DNA of 64,000 nt from a virus (Duplodnaviria; Heunggongvirae; Uroviricota; Caudoviricetes), in IMG/VR virus record IMGVR_UViG_2639762884_000001; one strand, written 5' to 3'. The notes under the pieces are model-generated. The model searched no databases. It worked only from the letters and a program-made list of their open reading frames with translations, and had not been told where the DNA came from. A program made the position numbers and the translations under genes. Positions 4,463-57,084 of this stretch are shown here, piece after piece (the first letter of the stretch is position 1; every line of letters begins with the position of its first letter).

Positions 4463-4480
4463 GAAAACAAGTTGTTTCAG
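4463..4480. promoter_or_regulatory. GAAAACAA-N-TTGTTT palindromic motif upstream of parA
   Basis: gaaaacaagttgtttcag, 50 nt upstream of ATG 4513; one of six near-identical sites. Confidence 0.45.
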
Positions 4481-4512
4481 ACGATAATTATATACGCAAA
4501 GGGAACTCTCCA

Positions 4513-5181
4513 ATGACCAAGATCTTTGTGGTTGGCGGCACAAAGGGCGGGCCTGGCAAATCCACCGTTGCCCAGCAAATTGCCGTTTGCCTGAAAGTCA
4601 AAAAGAAGAAGAAGGTTTATATCACCGATATAGATATTCAGCGCACGACAACGAGCTGGTGTGAAGACCGTCGACAGAACGAAGATCTTGAGCTGATTCC
4701 TTTTGCATACGTTCAAGATGACATCATTAAGCACCTAAAATCGCTTCAGGGTAGAGCTGAGTATGTAGTGGTAGATGCTGGTGGCTTTGACTCCGAAATT
4801 CAGCGACAAGCGATGCTGATGGCCGACGTTATCATTATCCCGCTGCGTCCTAAGCGTCGTGATTTGAAATCTTTACGTGACATCGATCCTATTATCGACA
4901 ATGTTCGCAATGTAAACGACAAAGTGAAAGTCCGCGCGGTCATGAACCAATGCCCGGCTTTGCCATCACAAGTGTCTCGCATTCTAGCGGCTAAAGAGAT
5001 TGTCGAGACGTTTGGCATCGAGTCTGCGCCAGTCAATCTATATAACCGCAACGTCTATGATGATGCGGAAGAGTCTGGTCGTTCTATCTTTGAAATGACC
5101 GGTAGCGAGCGCGACAAAAAGGCGGAAGCCGAGTTTGAAGAATTTGTAGATTATCTGTTGAGTCTGGAGGAAGAAGAATAA
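4513..5181 (+). CDS. parA: ParA-family partition ATPase (small type)
   Basis: Deviant Walker A GGTKGGPGKST near N-terminus; 222 aa; followed by small partner gene. Confidence 0.8.
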   Translation: MTKIFVVGGTKGGPGKSTVAQQIAVCLKVKKKKKVYITDIDIQRTTTSWCEDRRQNEDLELIPFAYVQDDIIKHLKSLQGRAEYVVVDAGGFDSEIQRQAMLMADVIIIPLRPKRRDLKSLRDIDPIIDNVRNVNDKVKVRAVMNQCPALPSQVSRILAAKEIVETFGIESAPVNLYNRNVYDDAEESGRSIFEMTGSERDKKAEAEFEEFVDYLLSLEEEE

Positions 5182-5540
5182 TGTCCATGAAAATGGGTGA
5201 CCTAGCAAAGCGCAAAGAGCCTGATGCACCGGCTAAGAACACAACTCCTTTGCGCCAACCAATCAGACCACAGGGACGCCCGACTCGTGGCAAAGAGAAA
5301 ATTAAAAGCCGCACGATGTCACTGGAAGACGAATACTTCGAACTGCTGGAGATGATGAAGTTCATCCCTCGCTTCGAGAAGTTCACCCGTTCTGACGTGA
5401 TTCGCGCAGCCATTTTCCATCTGGCAGAGAAGTCACCGCAGGAAATCGAGGACATCGTGAAACTTAACGAGGCGATCACTGCTGCCGATGTCACGATGCG
5501 TACCGATGAAATTAAACGCGAGTTAATGAAGAAAGGTTGA
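5181..5540 (+). CDS. small partition partner protein (ParB/ParG-like centromere-binding protein)
   Basis: 119-aa basic protein translationally coupled to parA (ATG overlaps stop); position only, no motif proof. Confidence 0.45.
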   Translation: MSMKMGDLAKRKEPDAPAKNTTPLRQPIRPQGRPTRGKEKIKSRTMSLEDEYFELLEMMKFIPRFEKFTRSDVIRAAIFHLAEKSPQEIEDIVKLNEAITAADVTMRTDEIKRELMKKG

Positions 5541-5546
5541 TATAAA

Positions 5547-5581
5547 TCTCTAAGGCTGGTCTGCATTGGACAGCCTTAGAA
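5547..5581. terminator. bidirectional stem-loop between convergent genes (also candidate ParB site)
   Basis: ctctaaggctg ... cagccttagaa perfect inverted repeat. Confidence 0.45.
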
Positions 5582-5600
5582 ATATTTCGTTCTATGAAAG

Positions 5601-6659
5601 CTATTCGTAGTTAAGCTCACCGAACAGACTGAACATCAAGTCACCATCCAAAATTTCAAAGGGCAACTCGACATACTCATCCTTATGTCTCGGAATTGCG
5701 TTGCCGTCGTTAGGGGCATTCTTGGTATAACCTTTTACATGTTTACCGTTTTCTTTTGTATACGGCAGCACGACAATTCGACCGTGATTTTTTGAAATGA
5801 TAGTTCCTTCTTTCCAGAGCGTATTGCCTCTTGAGGTGGTTTCGCTTTCGCTAGCAACTTTAACACTCCAACCTACCTGATTTTTGTCCTCAAACCAGAA
5901 AACAAAGTTGCCAACAACCAGTACCTTTTGCCCATTCCTGAGAGCTTCATCCAGCATTCTTTTTACGCTGGCGAGTTGCAGTAACCGGTTAGCACGCGGC
6001 AGAAGCATTGAGCGAATAGTCGCTTTTGTTTTTCCCCAATGTGCAGCGCCTGATAAACCAAAACCTCTGGCTATGCGTTCTTGGTAGCAGATCTTCGCTG
6101 TCTTAGCTTTGTTGTTATATGAACATTCCCAAGTGTTAGGAGCAACGAGTTGAAGTGAAACTTGGAATTTGGGAAGAAAAACAAAATGTAAGTAAGGCAT
6201 CTCGCTTAGCACGTCAAAAAGGGGTTGACGCAAAGTTTCGTAATCTGGGTTAATTATTAACTCATTTAATGTCACTCGCGGATCGTTGGCGTGTGCCTTA
6301 ATTGCTTCGTTGAGCATTATATGCTCTTCATCCATGAGACGTGATTTGGCTTTGAGTGCTTTGTCAACTTTCAAACGCAATGACTTCTTTTGAAACATAG
6401 ATAGAGGAAGTTTTTCAATGTCAAAGCTCACGTTTTTATTCAGCTCTAATGCCGCTTTTCTTGCTTCAGGATAGTTATCGTAGTCGTCATCAAAAGCGTG
6501 GTTTGGCATACCACGATCAACATATCGCCGATACCAAGCAAGGGTTCCATCATTACGGAGTTTCAGACAGAACATCGACCATTTATTCCGTTCATATTTA
6601 GGCTGAGGCCAAAAAGCCAGTTCGGGAAGGCCATATCCTGGAAGTCTATTCATGCGCAT
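5601..6659 (-). CDS. hypothetical protein
   Basis: Long minus-strand ORF (table 5601..6674, GTG); ATG at 6659 preferred; no recognised motif. Confidence 0.5.
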   Translation of the reverse strand: MRMNRLPGYGLPELAFWPQPKYERNKWSMFCLKLRNDGTLAWYRRYVDRGMPNHAFDDDYDNYPEARKAALELNKNVSFDIEKLPLSMFQKKSLRLKVDKALKAKSRLMDEEHIMLNEAIKAHANDPRVTLNELIINPDYETLRQPLFDVLSEMPYLHFVFLPKFQVSLQLVAPNTWECSYNNKAKTAKICYQERIARGFGLSGAAHWGKTKATIRSMLLPRANRLLQLASVKRMLDEALRNGQKVLVVGNFVFWFEDKNQVGWSVKVASESETTSRGNTLWKEGTIISKNHGRIVVLPYTKENGKHVKGYTKNAPNDGNAIPRHKDEYVELPFEILDGDLMFSLFGELNYE

Positions 6660-6777
6660 GGTGACAATATCCACGAGGCTAAAACACTGATTCTAACATG
6701 ATCTCCCTTGATAAATCTGTCAATGACATAGCATCTGGGGTTGGAGTCAAATTATGTTGTTCTTGGTATCCATTAGG

Positions 6778-6838
6778 AGCCTGTTTCTGTATATAAATAA
6801 TAAGTAACTTATTAAATATATACGGAAGCAGGTCTTTT
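6778..6838. repeat. AGCCTG(C/T)TTCTGTATATA...TATATACGGAAGCAGG hairpin element, copy 1
   Basis: Long imperfect inverted repeat with AT-rich loop; near-identical copy at 53874-53932. Confidence 0.5.
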
Positions 6839-6916
6839 AAAAGACACCACCAGACCAACTCCCTTCCGTTTTCACTTCCAAAAACTGACACCAGTCGCTA
6901 TCATCCGCTCATTGTG

Positions 6917-6937
6917 ATAAGTAAGTAACTACCTACC
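6917..6937. promoter_or_regulatory. ATAAGTAAGT...ACCTAC motif (family member)
   Basis: ataagtaagtaactacctacc immediately upstream of gene 6949. Confidence 0.3.
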
Positions 6938-6948
6938 AGGTGAGCCAC

Positions 6949-7689
6949 ATGAGCCAAATCTTTTTCGATACCATCGACAACGACCAGTACGACTTCATGA
7001 CAGAGTGGAATACCGCTGTTATGGACAAGTGGGTCGCTGAAAACATTGGTTTGTCGCGCTGTAAAGACGAGGCTGAACTCTTCGAGACGAAGTGGTTTGA
7101 TTACCGCGACATGCATCCTCTGATGGCCACCTGTCTATTTACGGAGGCATACAAACGTCAGTACTCAAATATCATGCTGACGCACGGTCGCGAACACTTT
7201 GAAACAGCTCCGTTCACCACCGGGTTAAAACGCCTGCCTTATCAGGAGTTGTCGACTGCCAATAAAACGTCGCTATGGAAAGCACGCCAGTTTGCTGACC
7301 GCTATTGCTGCTCATACGACTACTTTATCTCCACCGTTCTTTCCGCAGCTGCACGACGACTGTGGGACAAGCTGCCGCGTCCGCAGCATTTGTGGCAGCC
7401 AGAACTGATTGAGATATTTGAAGATAAATTAGCCAGACGCGCAACAACCCGTCTGGATGACTCTCTGGTTAGCTTTAAGCATATGGGAGACATGCAGTTC
7501 AACCCGATTCAGGAAAGCTATTTTGAGTGGATTCTGGAGCGTTTACGCGCCATCCCCCGCAGCAAGCGCATACGCGCAATTTTCTCCGCTATCTGGCTAA
7601 TGGAAATCGTTCCAGAGCGCCTTATTTCCGCCCACTTTCCAGAAGAACTGGAAGAAGCACGGCGGTTTATTGATCCCCTATCTAATTAA
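6949..7689 (+). CDS. hypothetical protein (upstream of helicase)
   Basis: ATG 6949 with AGGTGA RBS; table start 6940 is GTG. Confidence 0.5.
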   Translation: MSQIFFDTIDNDQYDFMTEWNTAVMDKWVAENIGLSRCKDEAELFETKWFDYRDMHPLMATCLFTEAYKRQYSNIMLTHGREHFETAPFTTGLKRLPYQELSTANKTSLWKARQFADRYCCSYDYFISTVLSAAARRLWDKLPRPQHLWQPELIEIFEDKLARRATTRLDDSLVSFKHMGDMQFNPIQESYFEWILERLRAIPRSKRIRAIFSAIWLMEIVPERLISAHFPEELEEARRFIDPLSN

Positions 7690-7698
7690 CTAATACTA

Positions 7699-7716
7699 GA
7701 AAACAATTTGTTTAAA
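7699..7716. promoter_or_regulatory. GAAAACAA-N-TTGTTT palindromic motif upstream of helicase
   Basis: gaaaacaatttgtttaaa, 34 nt upstream of ATG 7733. Confidence 0.45.
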
Positions 7717-7732
7717 AAACAAAGGAAAGCAC

Positions 7733-9073
7733 ATGACCGAACTTTGCCATACAGGACGCGGGCTGTCCGAAGAGTTTGATGAAGATTTCCAGAACAGACT
7801 GACGGCATATTTTTGTCGTGATCACGAGTTTCTTACTCGTGCGGGAGATCTGGTTGTGCCTAGCCAATTTGCCAATGCGGCCAATGCCATATTGGTTAAT
7901 ATGGTTTCGGGCTATTACCGTATGTACAAGAGCGCGCCCTCTTCATCTGCAATTCTGGATATGCTTAAGCGTGCGAAACGCGATAAGACTATCCGTGAGG
8001 AACTATTCGCCGATGTTGTTGCTGCGTTTAAGCGCATCCTTGCAGAAAAATTGTCCGATACCTCGTACATGGTTGACCAGGTATCAACCTTCGCAAAAAG
8101 CGTAGCGTTTGATGATGCTCTGATTAAGGCTGCTGAACTGAAAGAGAAAGGCGACTTTCAGGGGGCGATGGCAATCATGGCCAAGGTTCAGCAGATTGGA
8201 TCGAACGAAGCGACCGGAATCTATGACTACTACACCTCCGCAAGTGAGCGATTGAAAGCGCGTGAATATGAGGCTTCAGAGGAGTATGTGCCAAACAGCA
8301 TTACAACTGGACTCCCTCTGCTCGATAGGTTGTTGTACCAAAAAGGCTGGGCGAAGCGTGAAATGGTGCTCTTCATGGGGTTCGCTAAATCCGGTAAATC
8401 GACCGCAATGGGTGAGTTTTCCATAAACGCAACGCTTGCTGGCTACAATGTTCTGTATCTCTCGCTGGAGGTTCACACCACCATTTTATCCGACCGTTTT
8501 GATGCAAGATTGTCGGAGACAGAAATGTCCAAGCTAGTGGAACGGCGCGATGAGGTTCATCGTAAGTTGGCAGAGTTGGGAGCCACGAAGGGGATTGGTA
8601 GTTTGTGGGTGGTTGAGCGTCCGTCAGGAAGTATGTCACCGGCAGATCTGGACCGTATGCTTAACAGCATGAAAGCCAACGGCATGGTGCCTGACATGGT
8701 TGTTGTCGACTACGCAGATTTGATGCGTGCCAGTTATGACCTTCGTGATGATCGCGCCAACATTCGTAGTATCTACACCGATTTACGTGCTCTTTATGAC
8801 AAACATAACGTTGCTGGAATCACGGCATCGCAGACAAACCGTGAAGGTGGCGCGTCAGAAGTTGCCACAATGATGCACGCCGCCGACAACATCGAAAAAG
8901 TACGTATTGCTGACCTGGTAATAACGATCAACAAAACCGAAGAAGAAGAAGCGAAAGGAGAGGCTCGTCTCTACTTTGCTGGTTCACGTAACCAGCAGGG
9001 AGGGATCAGCATTCGCGTTAAACAAAACCTCGAACAAATGCGCTTCATTGAGCGAATCTTAGACGTTACCTAA
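7733..9073 (+). CDS. replicative DNA helicase (DnaB-like, RecA-fold C-terminal domain)
   Basis: Walker A GFAKSGKST; DnaB-type C-terminal region (VVVDYADLM, ITASQTNRE). Confidence 0.75.
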   Translation: MTELCHTGRGLSEEFDEDFQNRLTAYFCRDHEFLTRAGDLVVPSQFANAANAILVNMVSGYYRMYKSAPSSSAILDMLKRAKRDKTIREELFADVVAAFKRILAEKLSDTSYMVDQVSTFAKSVAFDDALIKAAELKEKGDFQGAMAIMAKVQQIGSNEATGIYDYYTSASERLKAREYEASEEYVPNSITTGLPLLDRLLYQKGWAKREMVLFMGFAKSGKSTAMGEFSINATLAGYNVLYLSLEVHTTILSDRFDARLSETEMSKLVERRDEVHRKLAELGATKGIGSLWVVERPSGSMSPADLDRMLNSMKANGMVPDMVVVDYADLMRASYDLRDDRANIRSIYTDLRALYDKHNVAGITASQTNREGGASEVATMMHAADNIEKVRIADLVITINKTEEEEAKGEARLYFAGSRNQQGGISIRVKQNLEQMRFIERILDVT

Positions 9074-9154
9074 AAAATAAGCGTGGAGAACACCTCCACG
9101 CTTGATTCATTGGTGAAACAACTTTTCTTTTGCCAAACCACAAAAGAAAAACAC

Positions 9155-21044: not shown

Positions 21045-21142
21045 CCCCTCTTCTCCCTGCGCGAATGGCTTAGTTCCCTGTTCGCGCAGTGCTACATTAA
21101 ACACACTAGTAAATAATTTGTTTTCATAACAAAGGATTAGCC

Positions 21143-23251
21143 ATGTCTAAAAAACGTTCCATCAAAGAGGTTCAGGACTTCCGTGACAGTGTAAAACGAG
21201 TAGTCGCTCTCCTTTCAGGTAAAAACATCCCTGTTGCAGAACGAGGGGACGACGCTTATGTACGCTATAACGATGATGGAGAGCCAATTCTCGTAAACAT
21301 CCCATCAATCCCGGATAACGCAACACCGGCATTGATGAATGCTGTGCGCGGATTTCTCGATCATGAGGTTGCTCACATTTTGTTTACCGATATTCGTGTG
21401 TCCAACAAAATGAGAGAAAAAGGACGCGTTCCTTCCTGGTCGCTATGGAATGCCTTAGAAGACGTGTTCATCGAGCGAAAAATGGGTCAGGTCTTTAACG
21501 GAACAAGACGTAATCTGATGGCAACTCAGCGCCTTATAATCGAAAAAGTCTTTAAACCAAAGGCTTCAGAGGCTATTGCTTATTGTGGCAAAGATCAGCG
21601 CGCGCTTTTTCTAAACTTCTTTCTCTGTCCGGTTGTAAGAGCCTGGGATGGCCAAGCACCGTTCGTAGATTTCATGGATGAATATTGGCCTGTCATTGAG
21701 AAACCAATTTCATTATTAAAAGAACATGGTATCGATGTGGCCGTGCGTAACATGTCTTGCACCGAGGATTGTGTAAAGGTGGCTGCGACCATAGCTAAGA
21801 TCCTCAAAGACACTGAAAGTGAAAGCAAAGGTAAGGAGTCAGCTCCGGGAAAAACTTCCGATCCTTCAGACGCTGACCAGACGGATGCCTCTGGAGAAAA
21901 CAATGAAGACAACGAAGATCATGAGACACCCTCAGCGTTAGATAATCACAAATCTATCAAATCAGAATCACACAGTAAGCACAAACATGATAATAACGAC
22001 AGTGATGATTCAGATAATTCTGAATCATCAGAAACAATATTCGATGATACAGAAAATGATAAAGAGGTATCAGATTCTGATGCTTCTGATAACGCGGTGT
22101 CAGAATCATTTACCGCTGACCACGAAAAAAGAAAAACGACAGAAGACGGCTCTTCAGATATTCCAACTCCGTCAAAAATGAGTCTGGAAGAGGCTTTAGA
22201 GGAGCTGGATAGCATAGAAGATGAAGTCGGAGGCATGACAGAAGATGCTCTATCCGAAACGATTAAAAGCGAGTTAACAGAAAGCTCGAAAAGCGAATAC
22301 AGGCCATACAATCGCTCATACGACTTCATCGGCTCGATTGATCAGGCAGAAGCCCATATCAAACGGCTTATTAAAACATTCTCCGATATTGATTTAGGAG
22401 GATATCCAATCAGCCGCTATCGCATCGTTCCTGAAGGCAACCAGCTCTTCGACAAATATATTGAAAAGCATCTTTCGTCAGGTGTTTCGTCGACGCTGGC
22501 AAAAGACCTGGAGCGAGCAATAGCAAGCAGAAACAGAGTTCAGTTTATACCGGGCCAGCGTCGGGGGCGCATTCATGGTTCTAGTATCTACAGATTAGCA
22601 ATGAATGATGATCGCGTGTTTCGTAAAAAAGAAGAATCTAAAGCCGTTAACGCCTGTGTTCAACAAGTGATTGATTTATCAGGTTCAATGAGTGGTATAA
22701 CGATACAATTGGCTCTTGCAAGTGCATATACCATCGCCGATGCCCTTGATCGAATAAATGTTCCCAACATTATCACCGGCTTCACTACATTTGGTAGTCA
22801 TATGGCGGCAGGAGAACTTAAGGCTGTCAAGTATGAGTTCTCTCGCTTTGAATCTTTAATGCTACCTATCATCAAAAATTGGAATGAAAAGGTAAATTCT
22901 CGCGAAGTTCGCTCACGTATGGGGTGCGTAGGCTACACATTCCCACTTCTTAATAACGTGGATGGTGAAAGCATAGCCAGCCTTGCATCGTTATTTTCCG
23001 GTCGCATGGAGGACAGGAAGATCATGCTTGTTCTGAGTGATGGCGCGCCGTGGGCTGTTGGGAGAGGTTTTGACGCTCATTTGCGTTCGGTTGCGAAGCA
23101 AATTGAAACGCAGACTGACATTGATTTGATGGCAATTGGCATCATGACTGACGCACCGGAGAGATTTTACTCAAATCATGCCCTGGTAACGAGCGTTGAT
23201 AGTCTTGGTTCATCTGTAGTTACTGAACTATCTCGTATCATTTTAAAGTGA
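21143..23251 (+). CDS. CobT-like vWA-domain protein with long acidic Ser/Asp-rich linker
   Basis: MIDAS-like DxSxS (VIDLSGSMSG) in C-terminal half; ~120-aa acidic low-complexity region; paired with downstream AAA+ gene. Confidence 0.55.
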   Translation: MSKKRSIKEVQDFRDSVKRVVALLSGKNIPVAERGDDAYVRYNDDGEPILVNIPSIPDNATPALMNAVRGFLDHEVAHILFTDIRVSNKMREKGRVPSWSLWNALEDVFIERKMGQVFNGTRRNLMATQRLIIEKVFKPKASEAIAYCGKDQRALFLNFFLCPVVRAWDGQAPFVDFMDEYWPVIEKPISLLKEHGIDVAVRNMSCTEDCVKVAATIAKILKDTESESKGKESAPGKTSDPSDADQTDASGENNEDNEDHETPSALDNHKSIKSESHSKHKHDNNDSDDSDNSESSETIFDDTENDKEVSDSDASDNAVSESFTADHEKRKTTEDGSSDIPTPSKMSLEEALEELDSIEDEVGGMTEDALSETIKSELTESSKSEYRPYNRSYDFIGSIDQAEAHIKRLIKTFSDIDLGGYPISRYRIVPEGNQLFDKYIEKHLSSGVSSTLAKDLERAIASRNRVQFIPGQRRGRIHGSSIYRLAMNDDRVFRKKEESKAVNACVQQVIDLSGSMSGITIQLALASAYTIADALDRINVPNIITGFTTFGSHMAAGELKAVKYEFSRFESLMLPIIKNWNEKVNSREVRSRMGCVGYTFPLLNNVDGESIASLASLFSGRMEDRKIMLVLSDGAPWAVGRGFDAHLRSVAKQIETQTDIDLMAIGIMTDAPERFYSNHALVTSVDSLGSSVVTELSRIILK

Positions 23252-32416: not shown

Positions 32417-33490
32417 ATGGCAAAAGGAAAATCCGCACTGGCACTTGCTCTGAAAAAGAAAATCGGTAGCAACGACGAAATTCAGAAAGTAACTCATTGG
32501 ATTGATACAGGCTTTCCACCGTTAAACAAAGCTATTTCTGGTCGTTACGATGGCGGCTTCCCATGTGGTCGTATCGTCGAAGTATTCGGTCCTCCAAGTG
32601 CAGGGAAAACGTTCCTTGCAACAGCAGCGATGATCTCCGCTCAAAAACAAGATGGTCTGGCGGTATTCCTCGATCATGAAAACAGTTTTGACGTTGGCCT
32701 GGCTGTAGCCAATGGCCTGAACGCAGATGAGGATGACGGTCAGTGGGTATACAAGCAGCCAGATACCTTCGAAGACTCTGTAGAGTTGATCGGCACAATA
32801 CTTAAATTGGTTCGTGATGAAGAGCTTATCCCCGAATCAGCACCTATCTGTATCGTGGCTGACTCTCTTGCGTCTATGGTTCCGAACTCCAAAGCTGAGA
32901 AGTTCGAAAAGATGGCTGAAGGCACTGCCAAAGACAAAGATCAGCTAAACATGAACGACAATACGGCACTGGCTCGTGCGACGAGTGCGAACTTCCCTAC
33001 TCTGGCTTTGTGGGCACGCAAATACAACGCCTGCATCATCTTCTTGAATCAGGTTCGCACAAAAATCGGTGTAATGTTTGGCGACCCTACTACGTCGCCA
33101 GGTGGAGATTCACCGAAGTTCTACGCTTCTGTACGTATCCGTCTTGGTGCATCGGTGATGAAGGATGGTAAAGAGAAGATCGGCCAGGACGTAGGCGCAG
33201 AATGCATCAAAAACAAAGTTGCACCACCGTATGGCAAATGCACCTGGAAATTCTACTTCGATCCTACTCGTGGCCTCGACGTTATCGAATCGCTCGTCGA
33301 GTACATGCTGGAAGAAGGATACCTGCCAAAGAACGCCAGCGGGCGAGTTGAAATTGGTGACAAGAAATACACCAAATCGCAGATCGTCGAGATGTATCGG
33401 GAGAAGCCACTGGCTGAAATCATTGCGGCTTTGCAGGCAATCGACGACCGAAGAGCAAAAGACAACCCCACCGAGTCAGTAGAAGAGTAA
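32417..33490 (+). CDS. RecA/UvsX-family recombinase
   Basis: Walker A GPPSAGKTFLA inside RecA-like core; Walker B-like VFLDHE; 357 aa. Confidence 0.8.
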   Translation: MAKGKSALALALKKKIGSNDEIQKVTHWIDTGFPPLNKAISGRYDGGFPCGRIVEVFGPPSAGKTFLATAAMISAQKQDGLAVFLDHENSFDVGLAVANGLNADEDDGQWVYKQPDTFEDSVELIGTILKLVRDEELIPESAPICIVADSLASMVPNSKAEKFEKMAEGTAKDKDQLNMNDNTALARATSANFPTLALWARKYNACIIFLNQVRTKIGVMFGDPTTSPGGDSPKFYASVRIRLGASVMKDGKEKIGQDVGAECIKNKVAPPYGKCTWKFYFDPTRGLDVIESLVEYMLEEGYLPKNASGRVEIGDKKYTKSQIVEMYREKPLAEIIAALQAIDDRRAKDNPTESVEE

Positions 33491-33551: not shown

Positions 33552-33582
33552 ATTTTCGCATAACAACCACATAGGAAAACAC

Positions 33583-33783
33583 ATGATCAAAATCTATCTA
33601 TTGGCAGTAGCCACAGGCCTTTCAGTGGCTCTCATCTACGGTTTACTGGTTCCGTCGCTGATTTCTACCAAGAGTGATTTAGCCGTCATGTTTGGAGTTA
33701 TCGTTGGTTTTGGTGCTCCTGTAATCGGTCTTATTGCTGGTCGTAAGTTTATCAACTCATTAATCAAAGCAAAGGGGAAATAA
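33583..33783 (+). CDS. small two-TM membrane protein
   Basis: 66 aa, two hydrophobic segments; directly precedes the SPFH gene. Confidence 0.5.
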   Translation: MIKIYLLAVATGLSVALIYGLLVPSLISTKSDLAVMFGVIVGFGAPVIGLIAGRKFINSLIKAKGK

Positions 33784-34633: not shown

Positions 34634-34660
34634 AGGCGTCCAGTTGGACGCCTTTTTTAT
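34634..34660 (+). terminator. rho-independent terminator
   Basis: aggcgtcca gt tggacgcct followed by tttttta. Confidence 0.7.
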
Positions 34661-34677
34661 CGCAATTATCTTATTAA

Positions 34678-34695
34678 GAAAACAATTTGTTTAAA
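34678..34695. promoter_or_regulatory. GAAAACAA-N-TTGTTT palindromic motif
   Basis: gaaaacaatttgtttaaa, 31 nt upstream of ATG 34709. Confidence 0.45.
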
Positions 34696-34708: not shown

Positions 34709-35134
34709 ATGGCAGCTATTAAGAAACTCTACGATGCCGCAAACGTGGCTCTGGATGTTATTGATGATGAAGTAGCAAAAGGCTTTCCTGAACCTGATTG
34801 GGCGCATCAGCTACGAAACGCTATCGCAGAAATGACCCCACCAGATCCAACCCCCGACGAGACAGACTGGCAGCGATTCATCCGTATGTACGCTCAGGAA
34901 ATAGGTCCAACGCCAACGGCAGAGCAGGCAATGCTGCTGAAATACTTCAAAGAGGCGGGAGAGGATTTACCAATTGATGACTCAGCATATTGGTTCCACT
35001 GCGCATGGCGTAAGTATGACGTGATATTCACACAAGGCATGGGAAGCAAAGATATGGTTGTGTGGCATCTACTCCATATAGACACAGCCGTTGACAGAGT
35101 TATTGAACAGTTTTTCCCTAAACAAGAAGATTGA
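34709..35134 (+). CDS. hypothetical protein
   Basis: 141-aa ORF downstream of the palindromic motif. Confidence 0.5.
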   Translation: MAAIKKLYDAANVALDVIDDEVAKGFPEPDWAHQLRNAIAEMTPPDPTPDETDWQRFIRMYAQEIGPTPTAEQAMLLKYFKEAGEDLPIDDSAYWFHCAWRKYDVIFTQGMGSKDMVVWHLLHIDTAVDRVIEQFFPKQED

Positions 35135-35189
35135 TCGCCTATTCATAACTAACAAAATAAGTAAACACTAACCACAAAAGGAAAAACAC

Positions 35190-35465
35190 ATGAGAGTTTT
35201 AGTTCGAATCGTTACCAGCACTGTCTATGACGTGTTTCCGCTTTTTATGGTCAAAGCCGATGGCCTTAACGACGAAGAAACTGACGCGCTGATCCAGCGT
35301 ATTCTCGTTGAATATACAGGTCATGACGCTGATTCAGTGATGGTTGATGATGATGGTGTTTGTTGGCATAACGGCAACTGTTGGTACGTAGAAGAGACTC
35401 AACAAATCAGTGATGAAGATGCCGCACATCTTGAGCGTATTTTAAGCATCAGCACTTTTGAGTGA
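35190..35465 (+). CDS. hypothetical acidic protein
   Basis: 91-aa ORF with conserved AAAGGAAAAACACATG leader. Confidence 0.5.
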   Translation: MRVLVRIVTSTVYDVFPLFMVKADGLNDEETDALIQRILVEYTGHDADSVMVDDDGVCWHNGNCWYVEETQQISDEDAAHLERILSISTFE

Positions 35466-46092: not shown

Positions 46093-46115
46093 GTAAGCCT
46101 TGTTTAAACACATAA

Positions 46116-46133
46116 GATAACAACTTGTTTAAA
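46116..46133. promoter_or_regulatory. GATAACAA-N-TTGTTT palindromic motif upstream of nrdB
   Basis: gataacaacttgtttaaa, 46 nt upstream of ATG 46162. Confidence 0.45.
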
Positions 46134-46161
46134 CGCACCAAAAAAGAAAAAGGAAAAACAC

Positions 46162-47304
46162 ATGTCATATTCAACGTTCCGTTTGGGTGCTAATGATGCA
46201 ACCAAAGAGCCTATGTTCCTCGGACAATCTGTCAACGTGGCACGTTACGATCAGCAAAAATACCGTGATTTTGAAAAGTTGATTGAACGTCAATTGTCTT
46301 TCTTCTGGCGGCCGGAAGAAGTTGATATTTCGAGCGATCGTATCGACTTCAACACGAAGCTGCGGGACCACGAACGTCACATTTTTCTGAGCAATCTCCG
46401 TTATCAAACGTTACTCGATTCAGTTCAGGGACGTAGTCCAAATGCAACGCTGCTGCCGCTTATCTCTATTCCTGAACTGGAAACGTGGGTTGAAACGTGG
46501 TCTTTCTCTGAGACTATCCATAGCCGCAGCTACACCCACATTATTCGTGGCATGGTGGACGATCCGAGCATTGTTTTTGACGGTATTGTTACGGATGAAG
46601 AAATCATCAACCGAGCGATCAGTATCTCTGCTGAATATGACAGGCTTTATGGGATGACCTGCGAGCGCCAGTCGTTAGGTGAGAAGGAGTTTGAACGTCT
46701 GTACGTAAATGAATATGGCTGGGAGCCATACCCTTTGCACCGTCAGCTTTTCCGCACGTTGGTGTCCATTAATGCGCTTGAGGCGATCCGTTTCTATGTA
46801 AGTTTTGCATGTACGTTTGCCTTTGGCGAACGGAAGTTGCTTGAGGGTAACACCAAAATTATGCGCTTTATTGCCCGTGATGAAGCTCTGCATTGCGAAG
46901 GAACTGAACGCATGATCCGCTTCATGCGTACCGGTCGCGAAGGTTTATTGTGGAAAGAGATTGCCGCTGATGAAGAAAACGTCATTTACGACACCATGAA
47001 ATCAGTCGCCGAACAAGAAATGAACTGGGCAGACTATCTCTTCAAAGACGGTTCGATGATTGGTTTAAACGCGGATATTCTCAAAACCTATGTAAAATAC
47101 CGCACCAATCTGGCTATGAATCGTCTTGGCCTGAAGGCTTTATTTCCAGAGGTTACCACCGATCCGCTGGTCTGGATGAACAAGTGGTTGTTAACCGACA
47201 CACTGCAAATTGCACCACAAGAGGCAGAGCAAAGCACATATCTGGTAGGTCAGATCGATTCTACCGTGGATAAGGCTTCTCTAAGCCAGTTTGCTGACCT
47301 GTAA
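46162..47304 (+). CDS. nrdB: ribonucleoside-diphosphate reductase small subunit (class Ia)
   Basis: 380 aa directly after nrdA; di-iron/tyrosyl-radical subunit pattern ([22 protein letters not shown]). Confidence 0.85.
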
Positions 47305-48253: not shown

Positions 48254-48270
48254 GTAGGTAGTTATCTATC
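48254..48270. promoter_or_regulatory. GTAGGTAGTTATCTATC motif (family member)
   Basis: Immediately after stop of gene 47382..48251. Confidence 0.3.
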
Positions 48271-48319
48271 TATGTATATTGTGTTAGCGCGTTAAATTCC
48301 TGAAACAACTATTCGTTTT

Positions 48320-48346
48320 GGTGGCCTATGGCCACCATTTTTTTAT
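48320..48346 (+). terminator. rho-independent terminator
   Basis: ggtggcc tat ggccacc followed by atttttttat. Confidence 0.7.
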
Positions 48347-48421
48347 CTATCTGGCCTTGTTCCCTCAATAAATGTAAACTCACGTAATGAATAAGTGGTT
48401 ACTTATCTTTGTGAGGTTTTT

Positions 48422-49525: not shown

Positions 49526-49526
49526 T

Positions 49527-51057: not shown

Positions 51058-51118
51058 AAATTGTTCGCCTCTTCGACATTGCGACAATAAAACTCTCAAA
51101 ATGGGTTAAGGATAAAAA

Positions 51119-51538: not shown

Positions 51539-51547
51539 GGAGTTTTG

Positions 51548-52105: not shown

Positions 52106-52109
52106 AACA

Positions 52110-52150
52110 AAAGCCTGCTTTAAAGATAGTTTGAAGCAGGCTTTCTTTTA
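52110..52150 (+). terminator. rho-independent terminator
   Basis: aagcctgctt ... aagcaggctt followed by tcttttaaa. Confidence 0.65.
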
Positions 52151-52265
52151 AAGAACAGTCGCCTTTCAATCATTTCCTGCCTGTATTTAATACTTTTCCG
52201 CCTGATAGGTTTAGTCAAAATGTAGCCATCGAAACGCAAATGCAACTAAACAGAAGGAGACTTAC

Positions 52266-53075
52266 ATGAGTTCGGTTGAAAATGTAATGACAAATGATGA
52301 TCTGGATGAGCTGACAGCCATGTTGCAATCACTTGATGAACCAGTAAAAAAAGCTGCACAGGTTGAAAATACTGATGATATTGACGATCTGCTTCTCGGC
52401 CTCGATGCTGGCGTAGCCATGAGTTCTGATGATGTTGCCGAAGAACTGTTCAATGAAGAAAAAGTAGGTGATTTCAGCTCCGCTTTAAATGAGTTGGAAT
52501 TAGCTCATGAGCCTATAAACGTAATTAACGCTGAAAGTGTTGAAGCTGCCGTAAACGAGCCAGAACAATTGGGATTTATTGAGGTTGAAGAGTGTGTTGA
52601 GGTTAATGAAGAATTAAAAGTTCAACAGTCAAATGATAGCAATACAAATAAAAAAGCTCGTACTGCAAGAGGTCCTCGTTTTACTTTAAGTGATAAAGAT
52701 GATTCGTTTTTCAATAAAGCAGGCTTAGAAAAAGATATTTTCTTAGACGCTTACGATAACGCGCCTGTCAAAGCAAAGGATAAGATATTAAACCTTCTTA
52801 ATTGGTTTAGCGGAGGTCCAGATATTAGTGTTTACACGGTAATTTCCATGAGACACCTTCTCACAGAAAAGAAGGCTACAAGTAATAGTATTAAGATTGC
52901 TTTAATGAGCAATCCAGAAAAACCGTATCCGCTTAACACTGCGTCAACTCAGGCTGGGCAAATGATGGCTGTATTTCCAGCTACAGGAATTGCCGTTAGA
53001 GACGGTGGAAATCTAACATTGAACGAAGAATCACCGATCGTTAAGAAGTTTGTCGCGGAGTACACTATTGGATGA
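52266..53075 (+). CDS. highly acidic hypothetical protein
   Basis: 269 aa; N-terminal half very Asp/Glu-rich (DDLDELTAMLQSLDEP...DDIDDLLLGLDAG...); AGGAG RBS. Confidence 0.5.
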   Translation: MSSVENVMTNDDLDELTAMLQSLDEPVKKAAQVENTDDIDDLLLGLDAGVAMSSDDVAEELFNEEKVGDFSSALNELELAHEPINVINAESVEAAVNEPEQLGFIEVEECVEVNEELKVQQSNDSNTNKKARTARGPRFTLSDKDDSFFNKAGLEKDIFLDAYDNAPVKAKDKILNLLNWFSGGPDISVYTVISMRHLLTEKKATSNSIKIALMSNPEKPYPLNTASTQAGQMMAVFPATGIAVRDGGNLTLNEESPIVKKFVAEYTIG

Positions 53076-53227
53076 CGTTCCCCTACTGAAAATAAAGCCC
53101 ATAGAGAGCTTTATAGTGCTGGGTAAGCCAATCACATACCCAGCACCACAAAAACGCGCCAGAGAGCTTCTCGTTTGCATTTCTGGCGCGTTTTATTTGA
53201 TTGCCATACATAAAATCAAATGCAAAA

Positions 53228-53247
53228 ATAGGTAATCACTTACCTAT
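53228..53247. promoter_or_regulatory. ATAGGTAATCACTTACCTAT palindrome (family member)
   Basis: Perfect AGGTAA/TTACCT inverted repeat just upstream of the Dam-like gene. Confidence 0.35.
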
Positions 53248-53258
53248 TGAGAAAGAAG

Positions 53259-53852
53259 ATGATTGCAGCCGAAAAAATCAAAAAGCGAAAGCGCGACAAC
53301 TCTCTTCGTGACCTCTGGAGAACACCTGACTGGCTGTTTAATGCCATTCAACGTTATCTGGGAGTGACATTTGATGTTGACGTTGCCTGCAATAAGGACA
53401 ATGCAAAGCTGCCTATTTTCATAGGCGTTGAGCGCGATGCTTTGAAATCTGAATGGGGGCAGCCAGGTACAATTGCCTTCCTCAATCCACCCTACTCCAA
53501 AATCTCCCCCTGGATTGATGCGGCTATACGTGAGCAGGCTCGCGGAGTTACAACAGTGATGCTAATTCCTCAATCCCTCGATACAAAGTGGTATGAGCGT
53601 GCAACAGAGTGTGCGAATGAGACGATTATTCTGTCTGGTGGCCGCGTAGCGTTTGTCGAGCCTGACGTCAATCTGGGTCAGGTAGAAGTAAACATCAACC
53701 CCGGTGGCAGTATGCTCGTTGTTTTTCGCGGATTCTGTCAGGACGCTGGGCACTCTATAAGCAAGATCCCTTTGGACGTCATGAAAAGTCTGGGAGGGTA
53801 TGATCCTGCGAATGTGATCAGGAAAAAAAGACCATCAAAGAAGGCTGCTTAG
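53259..53852 (+). CDS. DNA N6-adenine methyltransferase (phage Dam-like)
   Basis: Catalytic NPPY (AFLNPPYSKISPWIDAA); 197 aa from ATG 53259 (table start 53247 is TTG). Confidence 0.7.
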   Translation: MIAAEKIKKRKRDNSLRDLWRTPDWLFNAIQRYLGVTFDVDVACNKDNAKLPIFIGVERDALKSEWGQPGTIAFLNPPYSKISPWIDAAIREQARGVTTVMLIPQSLDTKWYERATECANETIILSGGRVAFVEPDVNLGQVEVNINPGGSMLVVFRGFCQDAGHSISKIPLDVMKSLGGYDPANVIRKKRPSKKAA

Positions 53853-53873
53853 TTTGCTCTGGCGTCTGTAATT

Positions 53874-53932
53874 AGCCTGCTTCTGTATATATAAATAACT
53901 ACATATTAATTATTAATATACGGAAGCAGGCT
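53874..53932. repeat. AGCCTGCTTCTGTATATAT...ATATACGGAAGCAGGCT hairpin element, copy 2 (likely terminator)
   Basis: Near-identical to 6778-6838 element; followed by gttttg. Confidence 0.5.
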
Positions 53933-54038
53933 GTTTTGTATCAGAGACTCCCAGACCTGAACATCACTACAGAATCCACTAGAACCCCTTCCCAGACGCT
54001 TTAAAATCGATTTTATGAACCACTTTAAGGAAACCAAC

Positions 54039-54269
54039 ATGTCATACCCGACTAATGTCGTTGCGCTCGTAGAGAGCGATTTTCTGGCCCAGGCTCGTGA
54101 AATGATGAAAGATCGTGAGCAGGCCTTCAACTTGTACGAATGGGCAATTAAGTGCTTGCATCTTGGCGAGCATCGCGAACTTGTTGAACAGCTTTTAGGT
54201 GAGTTGATCAATGAGGTGTTTGCCTTGAATGTTCAACTACATGGTAGAGAAAATAATCAATCACAATGA
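54039..54269 (+). CDS. hypothetical protein
   Basis: ATG 54039 with AAGGA RBS. Confidence 0.45.
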   Translation: MSYPTNVVALVESDFLAQAREMMKDREQAFNLYEWAIKCLHLGEHRELVEQLLGELINEVFALNVQLHGRENNQSQ

Positions 54270-54850
54270 TAGATAAGTACAAACTATTCATAAAGTGAAT
54301 TGTAAGTGCTAAGATCTGATAGTTTCCAGTCGTAGACTGGAGGCTCGATCTGATGGGTGGGGGTAAGCGTCACTGGCGTCAGGTTTAAAAAAGCTCACTA
54401 CCAGCGTAGAACCGGTGCCGTTTAGGTGTCGGGGAAGGGGGAACCAAAGTGAGCAGAGACAAGGGTCACTTTATGATTGTCGAGTCTGGGGTGTTTCGAG
54501 AGGTTGAATCCAGTACTCCCCTTCATAAAGTGTGGGAAGATCTCGGTTCTGGGGTGCTGTCATCCATAACTTCCCAAGTCTAAGCTGGCAGTAGACTTAG
54601 ACCATAGCTTTTCAGGTTATGAAACGACCAGGTTGGTGAGGAATTTTATACTCACCTCCCTGGGAGAGTATTACCTGAAAAGACAACCTCTCACTTCGTT
54701 CGAGGTGAACTTCACTCACTTCGTTCGTTCAGTTCAGGTTTATAAAAACCTGTTCTGGGAAGTAATTTGTTTATTTTAATAATTATTAACACGCACGCGT
54801 GTGCGCACGCGCGAGGAAAAAATCGGCGCGGCGCTTGATTCAGGAGTTTA
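54270..54850. other. ~580-bp non-coding, GC-richer structured region (candidate ncRNA or cis element)
   Basis: No plausible ORF on either strand; hairpins (ccagtc gta gactgg), direct repeats (tcacttcgttcg x2, tctggggtg x2) and GC palindrome cacgcgtg near 54790-54812. Confidence 0.35.
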
Positions 54851-54851
54851 T

Positions 54852-55445
54852 ATGACGACGAAGACACCAGCCCGATCGCAAGCAAAAACTCGCAAAAAAG
54901 ACAAAAACAAAAATTCTCCCCGCACCAATCCCACAACGCCTGTCGTAGAGTTCAACCCCCAGCTTAAAACCGTGAAAATCTTTAGTGATGGCTCTTGCCT
55001 CAAAAATCCGGGTGGCCCGGGCGGTTACGGTATCGTTCTCCAGTATCGTGGTGAGGAACGCGAGTTCTCAGATGGTTTTCATAGCACCACCAATAACCGC
55101 ATGGAGATGATGGGGGCACTTATCGGGCTGGAGCGTTTGAAATATCCATGCAACGTTATTTTGTACTCTGATAGCCAGTATCTGAAAAACGGCATGACAC
55201 AGTGGATGAAATGGTGGAAACGTAATGGATGGATGACTTCTGATAAAAAACCGGTAAAGAATGTTGATCTGTGGAAACGTCTGGATGAGGCCGCAAGTCG
55301 ACATAATGTTCGCTGGAAGTGGGTTAAAGGTCACGCCGGGCATCGTGAAAATGAAATATGTGATCGACTCGCGAAGATCGCAGCTTTTTCCGCAGCCGAT
55401 ACGCCTCACAAGAAAGACATTGGTTTTATTTACAACAAGTGGTAA
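54852..55445 (+). CDS. rnhA: ribonuclease HI with N-terminal basic extension
   Basis: Core closely matches bacterial RNase HI ([51 protein letters not shown]); ~38-aa Lys/Arg/Thr-rich N-terminal extension; ATG 54852 with AGGAG RBS. Confidence 0.85.
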
Positions 55446-55462
55446 GTAAGTGTTTACCTATC
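55442..55462. promoter_or_regulatory. GTAAGTAAGTGTTTACCTATC motif (family member)
   Basis: Overlaps the RNase H stop codon. Confidence 0.3.
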
Positions 55463-55590
55463 ATATTAAATCATGTATCTTATCGGCGTCAGGATGACAA
55501 TGTGTCGGTAAGACACAGTTCCAGGATGGAACGAGAAAGGCGGCTGGCGATCGCCAGCCGCAACTCTTTCTGACACTGGATGGAGTCCAC

Positions 55591-56085
55591 ATGGCACGTC
55601 AAACCTATTTCACTTCTGCAACTAAACGTCCTCGTTCACTACGTCAAATTTTGGCCGAATTATTTAGCGGTCGTGTTCTGTCACGTCTTGATGAACTGGA
55701 GACTACCGTTCGGTTGCTGAATGAACGTTTAGATAAGCAAGCGTCAGTTGTTGCGAACGTGGGGGCGATTGTTACCTCTGGTTCTTCACACCAAGCGAAA
55801 AATGCACGGCCTTTAGTGAAGGAGAAAAACAACAAGGACAGTTCGAATGGAAAATTTTCAAAGAAAGAGGCTGAAACCAATGGCCTACGTTCTCATTATA
55901 GTTTCACTGGCGACGGTAGCCGTTCCAGCCGGTCAGAGCCTTTTGATGCCGGATTCATCCATCACCACACCTCCGTCGACGACAATTACCACCACTCCAG
56001 TAGAGCGTCCTGTCACTCTGGATGGGATGACGGTGGATGCGATACCTCAAGTTCATCCAGTTACTCAGGATCATGTTGTGACTAA
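55591..56085 (+). CDS. hypothetical protein (3' half doubtful)
   Basis: Convincing coiled-coil-like N-terminal ~90 aa; 3' half overlaps ORF 55847..56098 in another frame and looks low-complexity. Confidence 0.3.
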   Translation: MARQTYFTSATKRPRSLRQILAELFSGRVLSRLDELETTVRLLNERLDKQASVVANVGAIVTSGSSHQAKNARPLVKEKNNKDSSNGKFSKKEAETNGLRSHYSFTGDGSRSSRSEPFDAGFIHHHTSVDDNYHHSSRASCHSGWDDGGCDTSSSSSYSGSCCD

Positions 56086-56098
56086 GGTGGTTGTATGA
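55847..56098 (+). CDS. membrane protein with Thr/Pro-rich linker
   Basis: TM segment MAYVLIIVSLATVAVPA then TTPPSTTITTTP. Confidence 0.4.
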   Translation: MENFQRKRLKPMAYVLIIVSLATVAVPAGQSLLMPDSSITTPPSTTITTTPVERPVTLDGMTVDAIPQVHPVTQDHVVTKVVV

Positions 56099-56283
56099 AC
56101 TGGCTTTCAAATCACTTTGGGAAAATTTGGCTGGCAATTCTGGCTCTCATGGCCGCCGGTTGGGTATCCAACATTATAAAACTCGTTTGCTCAGGTGATC
56201 TCCAGTTTCAGGCTGGCATGACCTTGGCTCGTGTAGTTGGGATTTTTATTTTTCCAGTCGGTTCGGTACTTGGTTATTTCTGA
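56095..56283 (+). CDS. small membrane protein
   Basis: 62 aa, two hydrophobic segments. Confidence 0.45.
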   Translation: MNWLSNHFGKIWLAILALMAAGWVSNIIKLVCSGDLQFQAGMTLARVVGIFIFPVGSVLGYF

Positions 56284-56337
56284 CGGTTGTTAGTGCATAT
56301 GCATTGACCGTCTTTGCGTAAGCAATTTATGTAACCA

Positions 56338-56355
56338 GAAAACAATTTGTTTTGA
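56338..56355. promoter_or_regulatory. GAAAACAA-N-TTGTTT palindromic motif
   Basis: gaaaacaatttgttttga, 39 nt upstream of ATG 56377. Confidence 0.45.
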
Positions 56356-56376
56356 CAAATAGCAAAAGGAAAACAC

Positions 56377-56802
56377 ATGTTAGGTTTCTTCAAAAAGAAA
56401 ACTCGTAAAGCTGTTATCGAAGTCAAAAAAATGGAGAACCGTGATGCGGTTGAAGCCACCGTGTGGGGCGGGTACATGATCTCCTATGCCAACGGTACAT
56501 GCGATGCAAAAGAAATTTCCATTCTTGAGAAAACAATTGCAGCTCTGCCTGCATTTTCTCCTTTTGCTGGTGAGATTGCCCAGATGAGCGCCAATATCCG
56601 CGCTCAATACGAAGCCTCACCGCGCCGTGCTAATGCCCAGGCTTTACGTGAGCTGGCGGATGTGGCCGGGACTGATGATGCAGTAGATGTACTGTGTCTG
56701 TGCCTTGATATTGCCGACCAGGACGGCATTGATGAACCAGAAGAGCAGGCGCTGAAAAAGATCGCCCAGGCGCTTCAGTTGTCACTGGATGCTTATCTCT
56801 AA
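56377..56802 (+). CDS. hypothetical protein (possibly TerB-like)
   Basis: 141 aa; acidic C-terminal helical region with loose resemblance to TerB-type domains. Confidence 0.3.
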   Translation: MLGFFKKKTRKAVIEVKKMENRDAVEATVWGGYMISYANGTCDAKEISILEKTIAALPAFSPFAGEIAQMSANIRAQYEASPRRANAQALRELADVAGTDDAVDVLCLCLDIADQDGIDEPEEQALKKIAQALQLSLDAYL

Positions 56803-56960
56803 TGCTTGAGAGATTCCGGCTTGTGACCGTCATTGCTCTTCTGGTGATGGCGGTGTTGGTGGATTTTACGGGAAAGATGATGTCTGTCATTTCTGATGGC
56901 GTCCTCATTGGTCTGGCGATCTACTTCGCTTATCCGCTAGTCCGTAAAGCAACGTGTTAA
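56802..56960 (+). CDS. small membrane protein (52 aa, not in ORF table)
   Basis: ATG overlaps upstream stop; two hydrophobic segments; followed by terminator. Confidence 0.4.
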   Translation: MLERFRLVTVIALLVMAVLVDFTGKMMSVISDGVLIGLAIYFAYPLVRKATC

Positions 56961-56962
56961 TG

Positions 56963-56992
56963 ACAAGGGCCAAATGGCCCTTGTGTTTCGTT
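56963..56992 (+). terminator. rho-independent terminator
   Basis: acaagggcc aaa tggcccttgt followed by gtttcgtt. Confidence 0.6.
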
Positions 56993-57066
56993 GACCGAAA
57001 TAGAGAGTTTGCACCTTTACGTTTAGCTTGCTCCCCTTTTATGCCACATCACAATAAAGCCAATAA

Positions 57067-57084
57067 GAAAACAACTTGTTTAAG
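57067..57084. promoter_or_regulatory. GAAAACAA-N-TTGTTT palindromic motif
   Basis: gaaaacaacttgtttaag, 33 nt upstream of ATG 57100. Confidence 0.45.

Follow-up and report, generated by a model that had tools for sequence, protein, structure and literature searches.

The plasmid prophage P1 carries C1 operators at more than a dozen promoters, i.e. those of replication, early and late-control genes, and these operators are conserved among its relatives. In the KorA/KorB system of the IncP plasmid RK2, one palindromic operator is reused at many promoters and in more than one position class. In the omega (pSM19035) and ParG (TP228) systems, a small protein encoded beside a type Ib ParA binds subsites of 7-8 bp at several promoters, and these act both as operator and as centromere. 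The phage-plasmid N15 has palindromic SopB sites that are scattered and not clustered (PMC7205306). In this work, we focused on a palindromic site dispersed over an SSU5-like phage-plasmid, a group whose lysogeny control is essentially undescribed. The stretch analysed comprises 64,000 nucleotides (IMG/VR record IMGVR_UViG_2639762884_000001), and this whole stretch is hereafter called the window. With moderate confidence, we read the site as a DNA operator for one conserved regulator, most likely a repressive one, whose logic would be closest to that of P1 C1, pSM19035 omega, RK2 KorA/KorB and N15 SopB.

As in P1, one type of site is dispersed over a plasmid-prophage genome and one protein could hold the lytic programme off; however, in P1 a monomer binds an asymmetric operator of 17 bp (ATTGCTCTAATAAATTT), whereas the present site has a perfect palindromic core of unrelated sequence. 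No C1-like gene is present in the annotations of Escherichia phage Cyrano, Salmonella phage SSU5 and Klebsiella phage pJN2-26, i.e. the complete annotated genomes used for comparison. A site at the parA promoter, contiguous half-sites and a periodicity of about 7 bp are shared with omega and ParG, but those systems rely on arrays of 7-12 repeats, where we found single palindromes or pairs and no array. As for N15, whose palindromes are likewise scattered over a phage-plasmid, its four sites are GC-rich (GTGCGACCnnGGTCGCAC) and are bound by a type Ia ParB-family protein, in contrast to the about 18 AT-rich sites at promoter positions described here. Reuse of the operator for replication, partition and other functions recalls RK2, although sequences and proteins differ, and KorB (a ParB-family protein) acts at a distance whereas the present sites lie within about -46 to +22 of the putative promoter. 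Since neither a shared sequence nor a demonstrable protein family links the site to any of these systems, and since the defining features of P1 and ParG/omega are absent or unconfirmed, it may represent a global operator regulon outside the named families.

The palindromic site and its conservation

The window showed 98-99 % identity to Cyrano (pLF82) and CMS-2020a by megablast, and 76-82 % identity to SSU5 and Klebsiella relatives. The distant Klebsiella plasmids pKqq_SB1124_3 (hereafter pKqq) and pCRKP18622-1, as well as Yersinia pestis pMT1, were later added to the comparison. Intergenic status was judged by the Cyrano annotation, about 89 % of the window being coding. A position weight matrix (PWM) was built from 55 sites of the three reference genomes, i.e. 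Cyrano, SSU5 and pJN2-26.

The preliminary description of the window had reported six copies of the palindrome, 31-50 nt upstream of start codons. All six were recovered, at 4463 (GAAAACAAGTTGTTTCA), 7699 and 34678 (both GAAAACAATTTGTTTAA), 46116 (GATAACAACTTGTTTAA), 56338 (GAAAACAATTTGTTTTG) and 57067 (GAAAACAACTTGTTTAA), with distances from site start to ATG of 50, 34, 31, 46, 39 and 33 nt, respectively, and a spacer of one base between the half-sites. The motif scan proposed there revealed clear enrichment over shuffled sequence: the 17-mer, with up to three mismatches, matched the window 10 times (1.35 expected), and the core AAACAANTTGTTT was found five times exactly (0.0 expected) and eight times with at most one mismatch (0.2 expected). 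At a PWM score of at least 15, the scan gave 13 strand-hits corresponding to 8 sites, against 0.0 in shuffles; at a score of at least 24, the window holds exactly eight strong sites and essentially nothing else. The two beyond the six already noted lie at 21108-21126 (centre 21117) and 61606-61624 (centre 61615, inverted). All eight are intergenic, although in a greedy call of open reading frames (ORFs) one site falls inside a spurious ORF of 56 amino acids.

In full, the motif extends over 19 bases, AGAAAACAAnTTGTTTAA; it is asymmetric as a whole, but its 13-bp core (6+1+6) is a perfect palindrome. Both arms are similarly conserved (1.2-1.8 bits per position over the 55 sites), the most variable positions being the central base and those adjoining it, and a natural change in one arm is never matched by a compensating change in the other. 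In inverted copies, the asymmetric flanks are the same but stand on the non-coding strand. Since nearly all genes are on the + strand, we infer that the site is recognised in duplex DNA and not in mRNA. An RNA hairpin or terminator was rejected: the minimum free energy of the site regions (-0.1 to -1.8 kcal/mol) is no better than that of shuffled controls, a 1-nt loop is impossible, and an Rfam scan of the window returned three tRNAs only and no structured-RNA match at the sites. A literature search found no publication that prints the motif or names a master regulator, and as far as we searched the motif has apparently not been described before.

Strong sites number 17-21 per genome, at orthologous positions, in Cyrano, SSU5, pJN2-26, pKqq and pCRKP18622-1. 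Protein identity across the family is 40-90 %, and mostly 40-60 % to Cyrano in the two distant Klebsiella plasmids; the motif is unchanged in both of these and in pMT1. In alignments of six upstream regions from 3-4 genomes, the motif, the Shine-Dalgarno sequence (SD) and the ATG form a conserved island within diverged DNA. A lineage with an altered motif was sought for co-variation with candidate proteins, and none was found among the distant Klebsiella plasmids and pMT1; as the motif is unchanged in all lineages checked, no natural specificity swap was found. An exact 18-mer match was present in 120 viral contigs, 101 of which are SSU5-like, the rest having single hits. The family is widespread in Enterobacteriaceae, and its members can have resistance genes as cargo: a family-specific marker, the FljA-like gene, was found in 835 PLSDB plasmids, including relatives of pHCM2 (Salmonella Typhi) and pMT1.

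The loci bearing sites are parA, the helicase gene, a cobT-like gene, polIII or nrdB, a TerB-like gene, a DUF4942 gene, about ten small early genes and the leader of terS. Replication, partition and nucleotide-metabolism genes, which the preliminary description had proposed as a co-regulated set, are thus among them, but the set is much wider and takes in the small early genes, the cobT-like and TerB-like genes and the terminase/late operon.

Position of the sites and promoter-like elements

Across five genomes, forward sites are centred 15-47 nt upstream of a start codon (proximal class) and inverted sites lie 50-96 nt upstream of one (distal class). Close pairs are always exactly 25 or 51 bp apart in these genomes. 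Pairs at 25 bp occur in the late-operon leader (Cyrano, SSU5) and upstream of nrdB (pJN2-26) and polIII (Klebsiella plasmids), whereas those at 51 bp occur at four early promoters and are mirror images around a -10-like hexamer. Elements resembling a -10 (TGnGATAAT, TGnTAnnTT or CAnAAT) are found 9-11 nt upstream of proximal sites, or abutting them. In the complete genomes, the proximal class of the early region follows the layout ...cTTT(T/G)AC-GCCTT-N10/11-TGc-GATAAT-aaCACCAaCA-AGAAAACAAnTTGTTTAA-(SD)-ATG, which would be that of an extended -10 promoter whose site has its centre near +14. The -10-like elements of the window are less uniform, their type being conserved while the sequence drifts. 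As the proximal site may be as close as 9-11 nt to the ATG, there is no room for a promoter in between, which would place the site at the transcription start or beyond it. Distal sites come after a terminator-like hairpin and have TGTGAAAAT or GATAAT 17 nt downstream of them, so that they would cover the -35 position. The place of proximal sites just downstream of the -10 is reminiscent of lac O1, which is centred at +11.

This geometry bears on the nature of the site. A dimeric regulator, as suggested in the preliminary description, would fit all findings, i.e. the perfect dyad with equal arms, the lack of compensation, both orientations, the mirror-symmetric pairs at 25 and 51 bp around a -10-like element and the conserved island. 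The other suggestion made there, a phage-specific promoter element, is not favoured: such an element would be expected in a single orientation and at a fixed position, but the five genomes show two orientation classes, two positions relative to the -10, and mirror pairs. Moreover, no phage RNA polymerase or sigma factor is annotated in Cyrano, SSU5 or pJN2-26, where about a dozen of the small proteins of unknown function were profiled.

Seven of the eight window sites are proximal. Site 1 (4462-4480, + strand; AGAAAACAAGTTGTTTCAG; PWM score 30.7) has its centre 42 nt before the parA ATG at 4513, with -10-like hexamers just upstream, i.e. TAGGCT (4444), TATATC (4449) and TATAAG (4458), and is kept in SSU5, pJN2-26 and pKqq. 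Site 2 (7698-7716, + strand; AGAAAACAATTTGTTTAAA; PWM 32.1) is centred 26 nt before the ATG of a DnaB-like helicase gene at 7733. In the four-genome alignment of this upstream region, conservation is limited to the site, the SD and the ATG, and a hexamer of TAnnnT type abuts the site in all four genomes (TAATAC at 7691 in the window, TAGTAT, TACGAT and CATAAT). Site 3 (21108-21126; AGTAAATAATTTGTTTTCA; PWM 24.1 and 20.0), to which no strand is assigned, is centred 26 nt before the cobT-like ATG at 21143. Its left half is degenerate, the SSU5 and pJN2-26 orthologues being perfect, and an extended -10-like element of TGnTAnnTT type (TGCTACATT at 21090), kept in three genomes, lies 9 nt upstream. 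Site 4 (34677-34695, + strand; AGAAAACAATTTGTTTAAA; PWM 32.5) is centred 23 nt before the ATG at 34709 of a hypothetical gene (CYRAN_58 orthologue); directly upstream are a terminator-like hairpin, GGCGTCCAGTTGGACGCC, starting at 34635, and then TTTTTT.

Site 5 (46115-46133, + strand; AGATAACAACTTGTTTAAA; PWM 27.6) has its centre 38 nt before the nrdB ATG at 46162, and is preceded by a terminator-like hairpin of nrdA (46061) and an extra half-site, TTGTTTAA (46100); in pJN2-26, two copies 25 bp apart are found upstream of nrdB. Site 6 (56337-56355, + strand; AGAAAACAATTTGTTTTGA; PWM 28.9) is centred 31 nt before the ATG at 56377 of a TerB/TciA-like gene. Site 7 (57066-57084, + strand; AGAAAACAACTTGTTTAAG; PWM 33.5), centred 25 nt before the ATG at 57100 of a hypothetical gene (CYRAN_87 orthologue), has a -10-like element of CAnAAT type (CACAAT at 57050) 10 nt upstream, kept in four genomes. 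Finally, site 8 (61606-61624, - strand; CTTAAATAAATTGTTTTCT on the + strand; PWM 28.1 on the - strand) is distal and inverted, its centre 81 nt before the ATG at 61696. It stands directly after the hairpin AAGGCCATAACTTATGGCCTT (61588), with the extended -10-like element TGTGAAAAT (61638) 17 nt downstream, and the same arrangement recurs at SSU5 85602 and pJN2 21773.

Directly upstream of the cobT-like extended -10-like element, a separate inverted repeat, CTGCGCGAA-N15-TTCGCGCAG, occupies window 21057-21089. It is kept in pJN2-26 and also in SSU5, where the arms show compensatory changes (CTGTACGAA...TTCGTACAG). Lacking a T run behind it, the repeat is no ordinary terminator; it could serve as a further regulatory site or form an RNA structure.

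The late-operon leader lies outside the window (Cyrano 1-135, SSU5 1-134). Its -10-like element is followed by a pair of palindromes at 25-bp spacing and, immediately ahead of terS, by a GC-rich hairpin (GAGCGCATGGACGCGCTC) with its T run. The order regulator gene, promoter, sites, terminator, late genes resembles lambda Q-PR'-tR', and by analogy a leader of the PR'-tR' type would suggest control of the late genes by antitermination. The likeness to lac and to lambda is one of geometry, with no sequence or protein homology found.

Direction of control and candidate binding proteins

In RNA-seq data from the LF82 Cyrano lysogen (S1 Table of PMC9928086), the prophage median is 9.8, and the genes directly behind the motif read 5.7-25.5, i.e. 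background level, including those with an extended -10-like promoter. The individual values are 7.1 for terS, 21.1 for the helicase gene, 7.8 for CYRAN_47, 5.7 for CYRAN_58, 12.9 for nrdB, 7.0 for CYRAN_85, 7.1 for CYRAN_87, 6.3 for CYRAN_93, 7.5 for CYRAN_101, 12.8 for CYRAN_105, 12.2 for CYRAN_106, 5.7 for CYRAN_108, 6.7 for CYRAN_110 and 25.5 for CYRAN_111. The parA operon (50-89) is the sole motif-bearing unit expressed (PMC9928086). Silent extended -10 promoters in the lysogen fit repression. Ciprofloxacin induces Cyrano 39-fold.

We favour the following model. The data establish the motif with its enrichment, symmetry, arrangement and conservation, as well as downstream genes that are silent in a lysogen; promoter assignment, binding to DNA, the repressive sign of control and the identity of the protein are inferred. 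The sites would be double-stranded DNA operators for one sequence-specific oligomeric regulator common to the SSU5 family. Each would overlap a host sigma-70-type extended -10 promoter with a weak or absent -35, proximal sites falling between the -10 and the SD (centred at about +5 to +14) and distal inverted sites over the -35 region (centred at about -38). Some promoters would carry both classes, 51 bp apart and mirror-symmetric about the -10, and some two sites 25 bp apart. Occupation of either position would keep RNA polymerase from binding or escaping, so that the regulator is most likely a repressor. About 15-20 dispersed transcription units would thereby be held silent during plasmid-prophage life, i.e. 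partition, helicase, nrdB, cobT-like, TerB-like, many small early genes and the late-operon leader. At the mirror pairs spaced by 51 bp, two dimers might bridge the -10; more speculatively, a site right after a terminator hairpin could be a roadblock against readthrough. The motif would provide a map of about 18 regulated promoters per genome, a bait for the regulator, and a means of studying the coordination of partition, replication, early and late genes by a single factor.

Several points weigh against this model. Immunity repressors do not usually have an operator that stays constant among phages so diverged, and a conserved activator or a host factor would fit this equally well. With the exception of the parA operon, no strong site is found at the promoters of annotated regulator genes, including the FljA-like gene and other minus-strand genes; the parA operon itself is needed for plasmid maintenance, yet it bears a good site. 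Because most prophage genes are silent (one of 15 motif units is expressed, vs about 14 % of prophage genes overall), the silence of motif genes is consistent with repression but not decisive. Promoter positions were assigned by consensus reading, and a strict sigma-70 scan with both hexamers finds no full -35/-10 promoter at the window sites. Full sigma-70 matches are below shuffled expectation (1 vs 5.7 in 4000-8000 and 3 vs 10.0 in 55500-62000), and their scarcity fits an element relying on extended -10 or factor-dependent promoters.

In an alternative that we regard as doubtful, the site would bind a conserved phage activator or dual regulator, or serve as loading site for a Q-like antiterminator. 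The best candidate is CYRAN_123, which would switch on the motif-bearing promoters in lytic growth. This winged-helix-like protein of 88 amino acids, encoded outside the window directly upstream of the terS leader, is better conserved than any other small protein of the family (invariant at 63 of 88 residues; 78 % identity where others show 40-60 %), its conservation matching that of the invariant motif. All its homologues among viral contigs are SSU5-like, with at least 78 % identity among the best 80 of 114. It weakly matches the LexA winged-helix domain, and pMT1 retains its gene together with intact sites. The succession of CYRAN_123 gene, promoter-like element, paired sites, hairpin with T run and terS resembles lambda Q-PR'-tR', but a terminator follows the sites in the late leader only. 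The window promoters lack -35 boxes and distal sites lie near -38, where class II activators bind; however, most sites are downstream of the -10, where repressors typically bind and activators rarely do. CYRAN_123 is silent in the lysogen like the motif genes, and would thus be an activator, an antiterminator or a late shut-off factor and not the lysogenic repressor. The TGnGATAAT extended -10 promoters should need no activator, yet they are silent there.

Other small proteins were considered as binders. The CYRAN_37 orthologue (15039-15254, + strand; 71 amino acids) is weakly winged-helix-like, its only Pfam match being HTH_45 (E = 0.18). It is conserved in four genomes (33 of 71 residues invariant) but not expressed in the lysogen, and pMT1 lacks it while keeping the palindromic sites. 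CYRAN_117 looks ribbon-helix-helix-like by eye and is expressed in the lysogen, but its putative DNA-reading strand varies between genomes; CYRAN_113 is a weaker winged-helix-like candidate. As common binders, CYRAN_45 (helix-turn-helix, beside the integrase gene) and CYRAN_98 (S24 peptidase only, UmuD/HumD-like) were rejected, being absent from SSU5.

Expression of the parA operon alone among motif units recalls negative autoregulation, which is what would be predicted if the palindromes doubled as dispersed centromere and as operators of a type Ib partition system bound by the product of 5181-5540, a reading we hold to be unlikely. ParA is small (222 amino acids, of type Ib size; matches to ParA/MipZ/VirC1), the site lies at its promoter, and the gene of the candidate small Par partner (5181-5540, + strand; 119 amino acids) starts directly downstream, at the parA stop. 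Its Cyrano counterpart, CYRAN_29, is annotated as a putative RelE/ParE toxin; no toxin-family match was obtained, and by position, size and disordered basic N-terminus it looks more like a centromere-binding partner of a small ParA than like a toxin. The AlphaFold2 (AF2) monomer model (pLDDT 64) has a disordered, basic N-terminal segment of 47 residues followed by helices. Its predicted DNA-reading segment (IKSRTMSxEDE...FTRSDVIRAAI) is invariant in all homologues, i.e. 25 proteins, all from the SSU5 family as far as checked. The contiguous 7-bp half-sites match the heptad periodicity of omega. In pKqq, the parA region holds extra half-sites around the palindrome, and dispersed inverted-repeat centromere sites are known in N15 (PMC7205306).

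A ribbon-helix-helix or ParG-like fold of this partner was nevertheless not confirmed: Pfam gave no match, phmmer against PDB was uninformative, PDB profile hits had E > 0.4, the AF2 model had no Foldseek match, and hhalign against ParG gave a probability of 0.1 %. A half-site density scan of the genomes showed no centromere-like repeat array, with a maximum of 3-5 hexamers per 150 bp. Moreover, pMT1 uses a P1-type par system and has no gene for the small Par partner, yet it keeps intact sites, a weak argument since pMT1 is evolutionarily young. Were partition the answer, about 18 dual-purpose palindromes would form the centromere and also silence the early, replication and late phage promoters, and would wire segregation and the lysogeny-lysis decision through one protein in the whole SSU5, pHCM2 and pMT1 family.

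It appears improbable that a DNA-binding protein of the host (Enterobacterales) recognises the site, so that the phage-plasmid would sense host state. The motif is invariant in Escherichia, Salmonella, Klebsiella and Yersinia plasmids despite the divergence of phage proteins, as a host factor would imply, but among viral sequences it is essentially confined to SSU5-like contigs. We know of no E. coli regulator with this consensus, and the motifs of KdgR, PurR/LacI-type regulators, PhoP and IHF differ in register or symmetry. A partition protein or a host factor as binder would be a more unusual result than the dedicated repressor that we favour.

The FljA-like protein is the only conserved gene product with a regulator annotation: among ten conserved small proteins, PHROGs gave 'unknown function' for all but this one ('transcriptional repressor'). 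Its gene lies outside the window (Cyrano 100780-101301, - strand), and the protein matches Pfam Flag1_repress (PF03614) over its full length in every family member (E = 1e-80). It looks like two tandem Sm/Hfq-like repeats, with an N-terminal half that varies greatly between near-identical plasmids, and might act on host flagellin rather than on phage genes. It is very improbable that the site acts in the mRNA leader as operator for this protein as translational repressor: a full-length homologue with a weak Hfq-like match exists in every family member, FljA-type proteins block translation of fliC mRNA (PMC2652032) and proximal sites fall in the predicted 5' leader just before the SD, but reverse-complement symmetry would be purposeless in single-stranded RNA that forms no hairpin, distal sites are inverted and upstream of the promoter, the best PWM scores in the fliC leaders of Salmonella and E. 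coli are reached by about 20-25 % of shuffled sequences, and the protein diverges to 33-43 % identity while the motif is fixed. CAAGTTG, shared with fliC/fljB leaders (E. coli fliC; Salmonella fliC and fljB from published primers), is not above chance and was rejected as a link to the FljA target.

Other features of the element

A second conserved element of the window is a stereotyped translation start region, AGGAAAACACATG, with nine matches at up to two mismatches (2.05 expected), all on the + strand, at 7723-7735, 9145-9157, 33573-33585, 35180-35192, 46152-46164, 56367-56379, 57090-57102, 60463-60475 and 61686-61698; it occurs 16 times in the distant plasmid pKqq. Five of the nine genes concerned also have a palindrome, and GAAAACA within the element is similar to the left half-site. 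A conserved stretch of about 500 bp outside the window (Cyrano 94600-95230, SSU5 ~90740, pJN2-26 ~25869) is non-coding and holds one palindrome together with further AACAA-rich repeats; no start codon follows downstream, and the stretch might represent an origin, a non-coding RNA or some other control region.

Window 5540-6900, which separates the par operon from the helicase module, has no counterpart in Cyrano (only 67 % of window 4000-11000 can be aligned) and has the look of a variable cargo slot; it carries a minus-strand ORF of 357 amino acids at 5601-6674. The recA/uvsX-like gene (window 32417-33490) encodes 357 amino acids here and in SSU5, whereas CYRAN_55 is 2340 bp long, so that an intein or homing element of about 1.26 kb seems to be inserted in Cyrano and to be missing from the element of the window. 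Finally, three clustered tRNA genes were detected by Rfam at window 16466-16709 (Asn, Thr and Ser in the Cyrano annotation), where SSU5 and pJN2-26 have tRNA-Asn only.

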